Numbered from the stretch's first letter, positions 23,456 through 25,851 are shown. The stretch is 64,000 nt of DNA from Minisyncoccia bacterium (GCA_050015515.1 JBEKBG010000003.1:6871-70870); one strand, 5' to 3'. Numbers and translations are program-made. Notes: a model not told the origin generated them from the letters alone.

Positions 23456-23456
23456 C

Positions 23457-23572
23457 AAAATCCTCTTAGGATTATCTTTTCGGGGACGGGTCGCGTTCTG
23501 CTGAACGCGCCCTAACGCTCGGCACCTTCGTGCCTCCGCGATTCCCCTCAAAGACAATCCTAAGAGGATTTT
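23457..23572 (+). repeat. long hairpin (21-bp arms, 1 mismatch) carrying in its loop copy 1 of a 72-nt structured repeat core (23479-23550)
   Basis: arms aaaatcctcttaggattatctt / aagacaatcctaagaggatttt; core TTCGGGGACGGGTCGCGTTCTGCTGAACGCGCCCTAACGCTCGGCACCTTCGTGCCTCCGCGATTCCCCTCA is identical to the reverse complement of 52506-52577. Confidence 0.6.
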
Positions 23573-23603
23573 ACTACTGCAGCGATATGCTAATATTAAG
23601 GTA

Positions 23604-24647
23604 ATGAATAGGCGAGGCTCTGTGATGCTCGTGGTCGTACTGATTATAGTGGCTGTTTTGGTTGCTGCGGGTGGGATTTGGTATTGGGAGGTTCACAAAT
23701 CCTCAAGCCCGATCGTTGCGGACAATAATACCGTCGCTGCAAGTAGTAGCAACAGTCAGGCTGATTCCGGTTCCACAAATTTAGGATTGGCGACCTATCA
23801 AGACCCTGAGTTCGGTTATTCGTTTGAATATCCATCGAGCTCTGATTACAGTATTCGAACCGAAGGCGCGCACGACTTTGCCATCGTCCAAGCGGACTCA
23901 ACGGGACAATACGCAGCTCATTATGTGTACGCAGGTGACTACACCTATTTTATATCTAGCCAATCAGAGGTTGATGCATATCTTAATAAGGAAAACGAAT
24001 CCTATCCTTACAGTGGAACGGAAACCATCAATGGCAATCTTTGGAAAATATACGGGAATAGTTCTAGCAACGAAATCCAATATGTCTCTTATAACGATGG
24101 GCTTCTTGTGACGTTGCGCAGTACCGATTCTATTGCAAGCTCCTCTTTCTCTCCCCTAGGGGATATTTTAAACACATTTCAATTTGCGAAATCGGCCGTC
24201 AATCGCATAGATACTGTCTTTAATAATCTCAAGGTGGGTGATGCGGTAAATGGAAATATTATAAATTCAATTCAGCAGGGCTCTGGACCTGAGTCGCAAC
24301 GTGGTCAACCTTTATCTGGTATCCAGACAGTAGTGGGATTTGCCGGATCGTTCACTTTAACTGGTTCTATTCAAACCGAAGATAATCCTAATGGTGATGG
24401 TCCTCTGGTGAGTTTTTTGCCGGACACTTTGGGGCTGGCGCAACTCCCACTGCTCTCAACGTCATCCATTGTGTTGGATGCAAATATTTCAGTTGGAAAT
24501 ACCTCACCCATTTTTGCTACTTTTCCAAATTTGGGAAATACTGTTCAATCAGAAACGACCACAATAGTTATAAATAATTTTCAAGAGACGCTTACTAGCA
24601 ATGGAGTAATCGAGCTTGCCGGCGAATTTGTAAAGGCGTCTCCTTAA
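23604..24647 (+). CDS. AT-rich secreted/membrane-anchored hypothetical protein (347 aa)
   Basis: N-terminal TM/signal anchor (LVVVLIIVAVLVAAGGIWYW), Ser/Asn/Thr-rich; lower GC than flanking atp genes (visual). Confidence 0.6.
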   Translation: MNRRGSVMLVVVLIIVAVLVAAGGIWYWEVHKSSSPIVADNNTVAASSSNSQADSGSTNLGLATYQDPEFGYSFEYPSSSDYSIRTEGAHDFAIVQADSTGQYAAHYVYAGDYTYFISSQSEVDAYLNKENESYPYSGTETINGNLWKIYGNSSSNEIQYVSYNDGLLVTLRSTDSIASSSFSPLGDILNTFQFAKSAVNRIDTVFNNLKVGDAVNGNIINSIQQGSGPESQRGQPLSGIQTVVGFAGSFTLTGSIQTEDNPNGDGPLVSFLPDTLGLAQLPLLSTSSIVLDANISVGNTSPIFATFPNLGNTVQSETTTIVINNFQETLTSNGVIELAGEFVKASP

Positions 24648-24694
24648 CAATATTTTTTGCCGATTACGAAGACAGTTCTATTGAGTGCGGATTT

Positions 24695-24969
24695 GGCTTG
24701 AAAGTGAAATCTTTCCGATCCTTCACGCTGGAAACAACCGGGATGACTGGGTTAGGGCCTTACCCGGAGCTATGCGCGGTGTGGTACTACCCCTTTGATT
24801 GTTATCAGTCAGGAGTTGCGCCTCGTACTCTCCCTCCTCCTGCCTCAAGCACTTGCTCGTTGGCTTAGACGGTGGCGTTTCAGCCGCCGGCGTCAGGTGT
24901 TCGGAATCACCCTACTAGCCACGGGGGAGATGCCTTATCCCATACCACGGGGATTGTTCAGCCATTATT
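24695..24969 (+). ncRNA. candidate structured RNA (unknown class) closed by a 21-bp long-range helix; strand uncertain
   Basis: tccgatccttcacgctggaaa (24695-24715) pairs with tttccagcgtgaaagatccga (24949-24969) with 2 mismatches; GC-rich internal local hairpins; no convincing protein coding signal. Confidence 0.3.
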
Positions 24970-25122
24970 TCCAGCGTGAAAGATCCGAAAAACTTTTGAA
25001 CTCCTTAAGTGTAGTGCGAGAAAAATTTTAGTCAAAAAGTTTTTCATGATTTTTTAATGTTTTGAAAATCGCTCAAAATTGGTTTAGATCTTTTTAATTT
25101 GCGCTTGCTATGCTTGGTGGAA

Positions 25123-25509
25123 ATGAAAAAAGATTTTGATGGCTGGAACATTCAGAAAGAAATTTTGCATAATAATTTTAGTATCCCTTTTTACAAAGAG
25201 CGCGATATCTGGTTTTGTTATTTAGGAGTAAATATCGGTCGTGAGGAGGATGGCAGTCCATCCACATTTCTTCGCCCAGTCGTTGTTTTGAGGAAATTCA
25301 AAAATGGCACCTTCTTTGGTGTTCCACTCACGCATACGCCACGATTTGGGAGAAATTATTTTACGGTCATCGACCGCCACGGGACAAGCTTCGCCATGCT
25401 TGCGCAAGGACGTATTCTAGATGGAAGAAGACTTTATTATCGATCGAGGGTTATGCCCCAAAATGATTTCGAATCACTGAAGTTGCGCTTTCTTTTGGGC
25501 ATTCTTTAA
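25123..25509 (+). CDS. MazF/PemK-family toxin-like endoribonuclease (orphan; no cognate antitoxin gene recognised)
   Basis: PemK/Kid-like core RDIWFCYLGVNIGREEDGS...RPVVVLRKFKNGTFFGVPLTHTP; ATG 25123 preferred over TTG 25099. Confidence 0.65.
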   Translation: MKKDFDGWNIQKEILHNNFSIPFYKERDIWFCYLGVNIGREEDGSPSTFLRPVVVLRKFKNGTFFGVPLTHTPRFGRNYFTVIDRHGTSFAMLAQGRILDGRRLYYRSRVMPQNDFESLKLRFLLGIL

Positions 25510-25640
25510 AAATTAACCCCCGTCGCGAGGACGGGGTCGGCCCGAAGGCAAAAGGGTCTCACGGACCCTGCCTTAAGGATACCCTTTCGCTAGAGCACGT
25601 CAAATAACCTTTAATGATTTTTTAATATGGTATTTCTATA

Positions 25641-25808
25641 ATGATAGTTATGAAAAAGAAAAAAATTACTTATGAAGAGGCGAGAAAAGTTCTCATCGAA
25701 AGAAATCCTTATTTATGCGGCATTCTTGATGAAATCAATAAAAAGCTGGATATTTTAATAAAGAAACAAAGAGAGTGGATAGAAGCCTTTGATAAAAGGC
25801 AACGATAA
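25641..25808 (+). CDS. AT-rich 55-aa small ORF downstream of the mazF-like gene (speculative)
   Basis: ATG 25641 to TAA 25806-25808; Lys-rich; overlaps only the non-genuine 5' extension of the atpD ORF. Confidence 0.25.
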
Positions 25809-25851
25809 ACATTTGCAGCCGTCCCGGGAATTTGCTACAATTCCAACTATT

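Follow-up and report, generated by a model that had tools for sequence, protein, structure and literature searches.

Several described systems bear on the locus studied here, a 2.4-kb island that splits the ATP synthase operon of a Minisyncoccia bacterium between atpG and atpD and holds a solitary MazF-like gene together with two candidate structured RNAs, which we named RNA-S and RNA-L. The B. subtilis pairs txpA/RatA and bsrG/SR4 are type I toxin-antitoxin pairs with convergent, 3'-overlapping antisense RNAs. The general features of type I systems have been described (PMC6563280). MazF/PemK (Kid/EndoA) proteins, in turn, are type II toxins; for E. coli mazEF an antisense RNA, aMEF, has been described in a system that retains MazE (PMC8749433). 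On the side of mobile nucleases, the concept of the free-standing homing endonuclease has been described for the mobE, mob and seg genes of phage T4 (PMC2790892, PMC2988022), and nuclease genes are reported at exchange boundaries (PMC10448857).

The island was analyzed within one strand of 64,000 nucleotides (GCA_050015515.1, JBEKBG010000003.1:6871-70870; hereafter the window), and all positions are counted from its first nucleotide. This metagenome-assembled genome belongs to the Minisyncoccia (Paceibacteria, candidate phyla radiation, CPR), the name being taken from the NCBI record of an identical MazF-like protein. CPR bacteria are uncultured and, to our knowledge, their regulatory RNAs are largely uncharted. 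All functions proposed below for the parts of the island are predicted from sequence. What is new here is less the split itself than what fills it, namely a MazF-fold gene that has a convergent small RNA in place of a protein antitoxin, and an uncatalogued structured RNA of ~300 nt linked to a minimal HNH gene.

The atpG-atpD junction in the window and in relatives

The upstream half of the operon is a contiguous block of atpB (18904-19671), atpE (19733-19960), atpF (20027-20539), atpH (20536-20943), atpA (20971-22497) and atpG (22520-23455), and atpD begins only at 25852, as a reading of the window without database searches (the sequence-only reading) had already reported. The gap of 2396 bp has a GC content of 0.433, a minimum for 2.4-kb stretches across the 64 kb (mean 0.536, sd 0.028), in agreement with the lower GC that had been claimed for it. 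Third-position GC (GC3) is 0.396 in an open reading frame (ORF) of 340 aa and 0.403 in the MazF-like ORF, against 0.71-0.80 in the atp genes. An assembly artefact is excluded by two contigs that match with 100% identity, L001 from ENA over 22001-27500 and L002 from JGI over 22001-24849, at which point the latter contig ends. All six features that had been listed in the gap were located, with the descriptions of two hairpin features amended below. The features are as follows:

22520-23455, plus strand: atpG (F1 gamma), which closes the upstream atpBEFHAG block (Pfam ATP-synt, 5e-82; identical protein on independent contigs)
23443-23586, no strand assigned: long branched hairpin, its 5' arm formed by the last codons and the stop codon of atpG, with a GC-rich three-way core (fold and covariation)
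23625-24647 (alternative start 23604), plus strand: 340-aa ORFan with an N-terminal hydrophobic anchor, variable cargo (gene call in L001 and L002)
24700-25003 (core 24707-24995), probably minus strand: RNA-L, a predicted structured non-coding RNA of ~300 nt (fold, conservation, promoter)
25008-25058, minus strand: predicted RNA-L promoter, TTGACT-16-TACACT (25035 to 25008), with an AT-rich UP-like tract to 25058 (promoter scan, conservation)
25123-25509, plus strand: solitary MazF/PemK-fold gene, 128 aa, with an N-terminal extension of ~22 aa (profiles, AlphaFold2 (AF2) model and Foldseek)
25508-25575, minus strand: RNA-S, a predicted small RNA gene of ~65 nt, made up of hairpin a, then a mini-hairpin (cUUCGg) and, abutting the stop codon of the MazF-like gene, a terminator hairpin with its U tract (scan, covariation)
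25576-25626, minus strand: predicted RNA-S promoter, TTGACG-16-TATCCT (25603 to 25576), with an AT-rich UP-like tract to 25626 (promoter scan, conservation)
25637-25808, plus strand: TATAAT (25637-25642), then an AT-rich small ORF (ATG 25650, 52 aa; or ATG 25641, 55 aa) (ORF; called in L001)
25812-25841, plus strand: site resembling a promoter for atpDC, 10 nt ahead of the atpD start codon (TTTGCA-18-TACAAT, extended TG; promoter scan, conservation)
25852-27285, plus strand: atpD (F1 beta), then atpC at 27303-27551 (Pfam ATP-synt_ab, 3.6e-75; ORF calls)

We took atpG neighbourhoods from 80 GTDB species representatives whose AtpG is 43-93% identical to that of the window (loci L013-L092), and both genes were located, and their distance measurable, in 74 loci. 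The gap was at most 30 nt in ~40 of these and at most 100 nt in ~50. Among the six closest species (AtpG 88-93% identical), L014 and L015, with AtpG identities of 92-93%, have gaps of 3 nt and are empty sites, while L017, L018 and L013 have gaps of 444, 574 and 1691 nt; in L019 (AtpG 87%) the gap is 1317 nt. Since the closest relatives mix 3-nt gaps with inserts of 444-1691 bp, the junction is an insertion hotspot. On this comparison of sequences, adjacency of atpG and atpD is ancestral, and insertions have landed at the junction repeatedly, not in one event. The sequence-only reading was right that the two genes are normally adjacent, and the empty sites in close relatives favour insertion. 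Deviant composition together with patchy presence among close relatives marks the gap as an island.

Other small genes occupy the same junction in distant Paceibacteria: a PD-(D/E)XK nuclease gene (PDDEXK_3, 6e-20; L062:6494-6886), a gene for a 23S-rRNA-intervening-sequence four-helix-bundle protein (23S_rRNA_IVP, 7e-38; L085:5445-5816), an LPD3-like ORF (L040:8097-8483) and, by eye, a GDSL-like fragment (L026:7947-8288). The sixth close species, L016 (AtpG 92%), differs in that atpG is followed by a triosephosphate-isomerase-like (tpiA) gene and a gene for a 252-aa membrane-anchored protein (L016:7975-9502, both assigned by eye). atpD was not found within the 1.6 kb of sequence beyond atpG, and the operon may be broken there in another way.

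The modules of the island are present or absent independently of each other in relatives, these modules being the hairpin, RNA-L, an HNH gene, the MazF-like gene with RNA-S, the protein cargo and the small ORF. The hairpin occurs in the window, L013, L017, L018 and L019, and RNA-L in the window, L012, L013, L019 and L110-L114. The MazF-like gene is present in the window, L010, L012, L019 and a contig with a 798-aa cargo gene; L110-L114 have an internally deleted copy, and L013, L017 and L018 none. The HNH gene is found in L012, L019 and L110-L112, and not in the window or L013. The large cargo varies as well, being the 340-aa ORFan in the window, the 798-aa protein in the other contig and proteins of 342-359 aa in L110 and L112. 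Different combinations exist: hairpin and small ORF only (L017, L018); hairpin and RNA-L without the MazF-like gene (L013); HNH gene, RNA-L and MazF-like gene without hairpin or cargo (L012). In relatives the order RNA-L, MazF-like gene, RNA-S is again found ahead of atpD, and L019 and the contig with the 798-aa cargo gene show atpG as well; intact MazF-like homologues in these recurrent arrangements are 77-84% identical.

We therefore read the 2.4 kb as accessory DNA gathered piecemeal, as a mosaic, at a recurrent hotspot in a genus-level clade of Paceibacteria. Our explanation as a whole, in its five parts, seems to us probable. It means that an essential, normally co-transcribed operon tolerates repeated invasion at one junction.

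A horizontally acquired cassette had been proposed earlier. The foreign composition of the protein genes supports the acquisition, and the independent variation of the modules contradicts a single cassette. That one mobile element brought all six features at once, and recently, would explain the uniformly low GC across the gap, the foreign GC3 of both protein genes and the empty sites in close relatives. We nevertheless consider it very unlikely, because the features combine differently across L012, L013, L017, L018, L110, L112 and the contig with the 798-aa cargo gene, and because the MazF-like gene and RNA-S also form a unit in an unrelated context, between scpA and dnaX. Third-position identity to relatives is 53% in the MazF-like gene and 56-68% in the atp genes, a similar divergence that argues against a recent arrival. 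The recurrence of the arrangement, with the MazF-like identities given above, likewise contradicts a recent private acquisition. Further, no integrase or transposase family was matched by the island ORFs scanned against Pfam, no tRNA was found near the island, and its only flanking repeat is a 10-nt match of chance type. This direct repeat, CAGATCATCG, lies at 23414-23423 in the atpG 3' end and at 25891-25900 in the atpD 5' end and codes for Q-I-I in each. As ~3.5 repeats of this kind would arise by chance in the region, it is unlikely to be a target-site duplication.

The opposite possibility is that the intervening genes are an ancestral core of the atp operon of this lineage and that tight junctions are secondary deletions. 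That RNA-L, the MazF-like gene and RNA-S recur before atpD in several species related to this one, and that RNA-L is under the purifying selection described below, would suit such a history, but the short gaps (at most 30 nt) in ~40 of 74 loci across the whole AtpG range, the GC3 contrast between island and atp genes, the internal deletion of the MazF-like gene in L110-L114, its absence from L013, L017 and L018, and the truncation of the HNH gene in L019 with its loss from the window and L013 make this highly improbable. Conserved core content shared by relatives, which would have told against an insertion, was not what we found: presence is patchy and many junctions are empty.

The MazF-like gene and the convergent RNA-S

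The MazF-like ATG lies at 25123, not 25126. The window protein matches Pfam PF02452 (PemK_toxin) at E = 1.3e-3 with 19.3 bits, under the 23.1-bit cut-off, and many of its homologues carry a precomputed PF02452 match. With a profile of 23 homologues, B. subtilis EndoA/YdcE was matched over the whole domain at 1.5e-6, and EndoA/YdcE/MazF chains at values up to 1e-5. The match to phrog_9567, annotated as 'MazF-like growth inhibitor', reaches 9.4e-10 and includes the N-terminal extension. The AF2 model (pLDDT 78.7, pTM 0.71) has MazF structures as all of its top 50 Foldseek PDB matches (S. aureus, E. coli, B. subtilis and M. tuberculosis; TM 0.6-0.79, probability 1.00), and judged from this model the protein is a MazF/Kid/CcdB-type beta-barrel. 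Glu..Gly..Arg-Pro and Pro-Leu-Thr are the conserved motifs of the family. R51-P52 is invariant and T70 nearly invariant in the 23 homologues, aligning with the RP and IT(A)Q motifs of EndoA, whose RP arginine and aligned threonine we take to be the catalytic residues of EndoA/MazF.

The protein thus shares fold and conserved motifs with the type II toxins of the MazF/PemK (PF02452) family, and the profile built from its homologues matches EndoA over the whole domain. It differs from them by its score under the Pfam cut-off, by the conserved extension of ~22 aa (F5, W8 and K12 invariant), by a 5-residue insertion before Arg-Pro, and by the lack of a gene for MazE or another protein antitoxin up- or downstream. 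No ORF of at least 30 aa exists between 25004 and 25122, upstream of the gene, and no MazE- or antitoxin-like partner was found in the atp, scpA/dnaX, TraG or prophage contexts in which the family occurs. The orphan MazF/PemK-like toxin gene of the sequence-only reading is therefore supported by fold and motifs, with no protein antitoxin gene found.

We collected 53 homologues, and all named or contig-traced ones are from CPR bacteria. Several genomes of other Paceibacteria have the gene between scpA and dnaX; the signal recognition particle (SRP) RNA, considered because of this position upstream of dnaX, was dismissed, as those loci gave no Rfam SRP match. A Giovannonibacteria-type homologue (42% identical; L094:1-4568) lies between a TraG-like P-loop cluster and an MNT/HepT pair, a context like that of a mobile element. 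Outside these lists, Campylobacter phage CJIE4-3 (L115; KF751795.1, 30466-33858) carries a solitary MazF-like gene (32% identical) between the genes for the terminase large subunit and the portal, so that here, too, the subfamily sits between conserved genes. For the MazF homologue of Campylobacter prophage CJIE4, no MazE was reported, and the protein was detected by proteomics (PMC3995785).

At the 3' end of the MazF-like gene, the sequence-only reading had placed a terminator-like GC hairpin pair (25517-25570). These hairpins (25518-25569) score as terminators on the minus strand only; on the plus strand no terminator was called there and no U tract follows either hairpin, so the pair is better read as part of a minus-strand small RNA gene, RNA-S. 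Its predicted terminator consists of the minus-strand hairpin from 25536 to 25518, followed by GTTAATTTTT. RNA-S also has a mini-hairpin of three pairs with a UNCG tetraloop (UUCG; UCCG in L011), which is kept on the minus strand only. Compensatory changes across seven loci (GGGUC/GACCC, GGACU/AGUCC, GGAUC/GAUCC) support the RNA-S hairpins.

We then built a covariance model, R1, from seven sequences and searched 1.12 Mb of Paceibacteria DNA with it. R1 scored 84.7 bits at the window locus and gave 11 matches, every one of them directly beyond the 3' end of a MazF-like gene and convergent with it; the match ranked below these had E = 0.24. All MazF-like loci examined that retain the 3' flank of the ORF likewise have RNA-S there in convergent orientation, and the stretch behind the stop codon is conserved throughout this MazF-like subfamily. 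Against Rfam, RNA-S gave only chance-level matches.

The homologues that are 36-42% identical do not have hairpin a, and their best promoter is still on the minus strand in the same place; a UUCG mini-hairpin and a GC hairpin come after it, and in one case a terminator too. In the Campylobacter prophage copy a minus-strand terminator overlaps the MazF-like stop codon, and ~90 nt upstream of it the minus strand reads, by eye, TGATATAAT. Two annotated proteins of 157-164 aa (P0019, L104:260-733; P0009, L011:8001-8495) carry C-terminal extensions (...GVGPKAKGS...) that are RNA-S DNA translated after loss of the stop codon. Probably these proteins are over-extended in annotation; otherwise they truly overlap RNA-S.

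It might be argued that these hairpins, and the long one after atpG, are mere terminators or insulators, that the promoters are chance matches in AT-rich DNA and that small RNAs are not produced at all. Terminator hairpins usually stand at gene ends, consensus promoter matches are common in such DNA (8 found, 4.8 expected), and all transcription features are predictions. This explanation is nonetheless quite unlikely in our judgement, given that the U tract is on the minus strand and that hairpin a is kept by compensatory changes although termination does not need it, and that the tetraloop is maintained on one strand only. The RNA-S promoter, which is near consensus, argues in the same direction: in 10 loci, which include the homologues 36-42% identical, TTGAC and T1 and T3 of the -10 element are invariant and A2 and T6 nearly so (TATnnT), with a constant spacing of 16-17 nt and a variable spacer sequence.

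We propose instead that RNA-S would control the MazF-like gene, most likely by 3'-overlapping antisense pairing with a read-through mRNA, as in type I systems. Alternatively it would bind the MazF-like protein, as in type III systems; either way, the pair would be an addiction-type module. The likeness to type I systems with convergent 3'-overlapping antisense RNAs lies in an RNA gene with a strong promoter placed tail-to-tail with the toxin gene, its terminator abutting the toxin stop codon, and in the lack of a protein antitoxin; in L104 and L011 the extended ORF even physically overlaps the RNA-S gene. Unlike the small hydrophobic peptides of type I, the protein here is a soluble MazF-fold protein of 128 aa, and the overlap of the transcripts is a prediction. 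With type III systems (ToxIN and others) the pair shares an RNase toxin without protein antitoxin beside a non-coding RNA, but type III antitoxins are tandem repeat arrays upstream on the same strand, whereas RNA-S is single-copy, downstream and convergent. The only tandem repeat in the island is a 24-nt AT-rich stretch, so a type III-like array was rejected. By the formal definitions the pair belongs to none of the three types: its toxin is no small peptide, as type I requires, the MazE of type II is missing, and so is the repeat array of type III.

Four points weigh against this proposal. Every promoter, terminator, RNA end and strand is a prediction from sequence. RNA-S and the MazF-like mRNA overlap only if the mRNA reads past the stop codon; no plus-strand terminator was found ahead of RNA-S. 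No U tract follows the minus-strand hairpin in L094. Finally, the MazF-like protein may not be toxic, as its position between scpA and dnaX is conserved in other Paceibacteria.

The last point leads to the view that the protein is a housekeeping or regulatory endoribonuclease of Paceibacteria rather than an addiction toxin, with RNA-S as its substrate or an unrelated neighbour. Besides the conserved scpA - MazF-like - dnaX order in several genomes, an antitoxin protein was found nowhere, the Campylobacter homologue is expressed as a protein without MazE (PMC3995785), and PADLOC gave no defence match (nor did it for the ORFan or the small ORFs). We think this unlikely, since the gene is dispensable, being deleted or truncated in close relatives, has a foreign composition in the window, belongs to a phage family annotated as growth inhibitor, and occurs in mobile contexts (TraG-like with MNT/HepT in L094; prophage terminase/portal). 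For the MazF-like/RNA-S pair, an addiction or defence role would be plausible.

In L110-L114 (e.g. L110:2705-2944), the MazF-like gene has lost ~180 nt (residues ~45-99), leaving an ORF of 79 aa, and both RNA-L and RNA-S are retained. The toxin appears to have decayed there with its RNA neighbours kept.

If RNA-S does act on the MazF-like gene, a MazF-fold toxin with an RNA antitoxin would be a hybrid between types I/III and type II. As an antitoxin, RNA-S would explain 'orphan' MazF genes such as the one in the Campylobacter prophage, and would add an RNA-controlled branch to the best-studied toxin family.

RNA-L and its HNH neighbour in relatives

A structured non-coding region of ~275 nt had been noted upstream of the MazF-like gene, and we found it at 24707-24995, with a 31-nt closing stem and fold z-scores of -3.4 (plus) and -3.7 (minus). 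No Rfam family, with HEARO, SRP, RNase P, 6S, tmRNA and group I/II introns among those considered, matched RNA-L at E<=10 on either strand, also when it was searched alone; in the island region, nothing reached a gathering threshold and nothing meaningful appeared at E<=10 in 23400-25900. RNA-L is 86-92% identical to its relatives, compared with third-codon-position identities of 56-68% for atpA/G/D and 53% for the MazF-like gene beside it. This comparison shows, at the level of the alignments, that RNA-L is under purifying selection.

Hidden coding was considered, including a conserved-looking, Arg-rich ORF on the plus strand, and rejected: indels among homologues (1, 2 and 3 nt) do not keep to multiples of 3, and substitutions fall evenly over the three codon positions without codon periodicity. 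The minus-strand consensus has 87 pairs with 96.5% of cells paired, and 7 pairs show double changes, compared with 3.5 in shuffles (1/500). The predicted RNA-L promoter, of sigma-70 type, has TTGAC in the -35 element and T1, A2, A4 and T6 of the -10 element invariant in five lineages, and its spacer is constant in length (17 nt after TTGAC) and variable in sequence. This promoter region is a 28-nt direct repeat of the RNA-S promoter region. No promoter-like conservation was seen on the opposite side of RNA-L. Because the conserved promoter points into RNA-L and nothing is conserved on the other side, RNA-L is probably encoded on the minus strand and would start near 25003.

For its distribution, we used the sequence seed CTGGAAACAAC-N4-ATGACTGGG and an nhmmer profile. 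The profile, run over 92 loci and the window, found no copies beyond L012, L013 and L019, and loci added later contributed only L110-L114; a pattern scan of viral contigs found nothing. In L013 a 264-nt perfect-stem palindrome (L013:8570-8833) with perfect 30-bp terminal inverted repeats (GGGTTCTATTCGGCTACACATACGCCCGCG...) sits exactly in one terminal loop of RNA-L, the rest of which is intact. It looks like a palindromic element of the MITE (miniature inverted-repeat transposable element) kind or a tolerated stem extension.

The only functional lead for RNA-L is its apparent link to an HNH gene. In L012, L019, L110, L111 and L112, an ORF of 83-125 aa follows on the same strand, 13-22 nt past the closing stem and always directly after RNA-L; it is truncated in L019 and intact in the other four. 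It matches Pfam HNH at 8e-4 and phage HNH PHROGs at 4e-6. The family comprises 16 clusters, of which the two that carry organism names are Paceibacterota. RNA-L is not the partner of the toxin, because it occurs without the MazF-like gene in L013, and the MazF-like gene occurs without RNA-L in the scpA/dnaX context.

A small HNH gene lodged between highly conserved neighbours, at a site that is empty in sister species, is the mark of a free-standing homing endonuclease and leads us to a reading of this kind. RNA-L and the HNH gene would be a free-standing unit of homing-endonuclease type that opened the atpG|atpD junction: the HNH protein would cut empty atpG|atpD sites and the unit would be copied in by repair. 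The window would since have lost the nuclease and kept RNA-L as a nuclease-less remnant. The free-standing homing endonuclease genes of T4 show the same intergenic position of a small HNH gene between conserved genes, the same empty sites and patchiness, and cargo apparently carried along. They differ in residing in a phage instead of a CPR chromosome and in having no conserved structured RNA of 300 nt in front, and the window itself no longer has the nuclease.

HEARO and IscB omega-RNA offer a second comparison, as there, too, a structured RNA of ~300 nt lies directly upstream of an HNH ORF on the same strand. Rfam, which should include HEARO, gave no such match for RNA-L, and the HNH proteins here are only 83-125 aa, without RuvC or bridge-helix and with no guide-like complementarity of the RNA to the insertion site.

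Several observations count against the RNA-L/HNH proposal or limit the reading of RNA-L. Guiding by RNA-L or RNA-S was rejected, since neither is complementary over 9 nt or more to the empty junction or the ends of the atp genes, and a single 11-nt match in the ORFan gene is no more than chance would give. By tblastn, the window contains no HNH homologue, which bears on the homing part. As to structure, the distinct RNA-L sequences compared are five only, all ~90% alike, so that the support is modest. As to strand, single-sequence folding energies are equal on both strands, and in one RNA-L hairpin (A6 columns 149-175) four of five lineages have A-C breaks when read on the minus strand where the plus strand would form G-U pairs.

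Taken together, the two RNAs suggest a joint reading, in which an N-extended MazF-like subfamily of CPR bacteria and a Campylobacter prophage is under convergent RNA-S and not MazE, and RNA-L represents a new structured class tied to a minimal HNH protein that targets atpG|atpD. We put this forward tentatively and regard it as doubtful in its full form. The island in any case exposes two conserved RNAs, RNA-L and RNA-S, that are absent from Rfam.

Ends of the split operon, cargo and minor observations

At the atpG end, the hairpin at 23443-23586 (144 nt) has 44-nt arms that are 86% complementary, with a minimum free energy of -84.4 kcal/mol and z = -11.8. Compensatory double changes affect 28 of its 63 pairs in five sequences, and the inner GC-rich three-way core is nearly invariant. 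In L019, where the atpG C-terminus differs (...ALE*), the distal arm is altered to match. The empty sites L014 and L015 lack the hairpin. On the plus strand it is not followed by a U tract. The earlier description as a hairpin-embedded repeat element holds for the hairpin, which begins inside atpG, and not for the repeat: no further copies were found within the 64-kb window, and in relatives it is confined to the atpG end. A multi-copy MITE was rejected on the same grounds.

We suppose that the hairpin would define or stabilise the 3' end of the atpBEFHAG transcript through processing, or insulate it. An alternative is a palindrome that acts at the level of the DNA and whose arms template switching would keep perfect; the G-U counts, equal on both strands, also fit this.

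At the other end, the promoter-like site before atpD is kept as TTGCA/TTGCG ... TGnTAnnAT in all seven island-bearing sequences compared (window, L013, L017, L018, L019, L110 and L010), and is absent from the empty sites L014 and L015, where atpD starts 3 nt after atpG. From this site atpDC would be transcribed alone and almost leaderless, making the split tolerable. Either read-through or a new internal promoter had been suggested for atpDC, and the promoter search upstream of 25852 favours the internal promoter, as a prediction. The sequence thus suggests how the split is tolerated, with a structured 3' end for the upstream half and a near-leaderless atpDC promoter.

The 340-aa ORFan matched no Pfam, NCBIfam, PADLOC or PHROG family; among 5.8 billion proteins only itself and one weak match were found, and tblastn found no homologue in relatives. 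In another contig the 798-aa gene sits at its position. The small ORF before atpD has a GC content of 0.30 and no homologue by tblastn. At its position L013, L017 and L018 have coiled-coil ORFs of 74-131 aa with similar starts (MIGVME/MIVMKK), and L110 and L010 keep only its last ~60 nt. Whether the ORF at 25641/25650-25808 is coding is doubtful.

A TATAAT followed 6-7 nt later by an ATG, with no Shine-Dalgarno sequence, occurs at 25637-25652 and again at ~37040-37090 (plus strand, near 37068), which suggests that leaderless mRNAs may be common in this genome. A third copy of the AT-rich UP-like tract with TTGAC, besides those of RNA-L and RNA-S, lies at 14323-14375 in plus orientation (TTGACT ... 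TATGAT), before an 81-aa gene (14431-14676) and ftsE/ftsX; the motif looks like the strong-promoter architecture of this genome. Beyond the island, the next-lowest GC in the window is 0.454 (2.4 kb from ~42201), over a guaA-like GMP synthase gene (42240-43775, assigned by eye) that may be another compositionally atypical gene.

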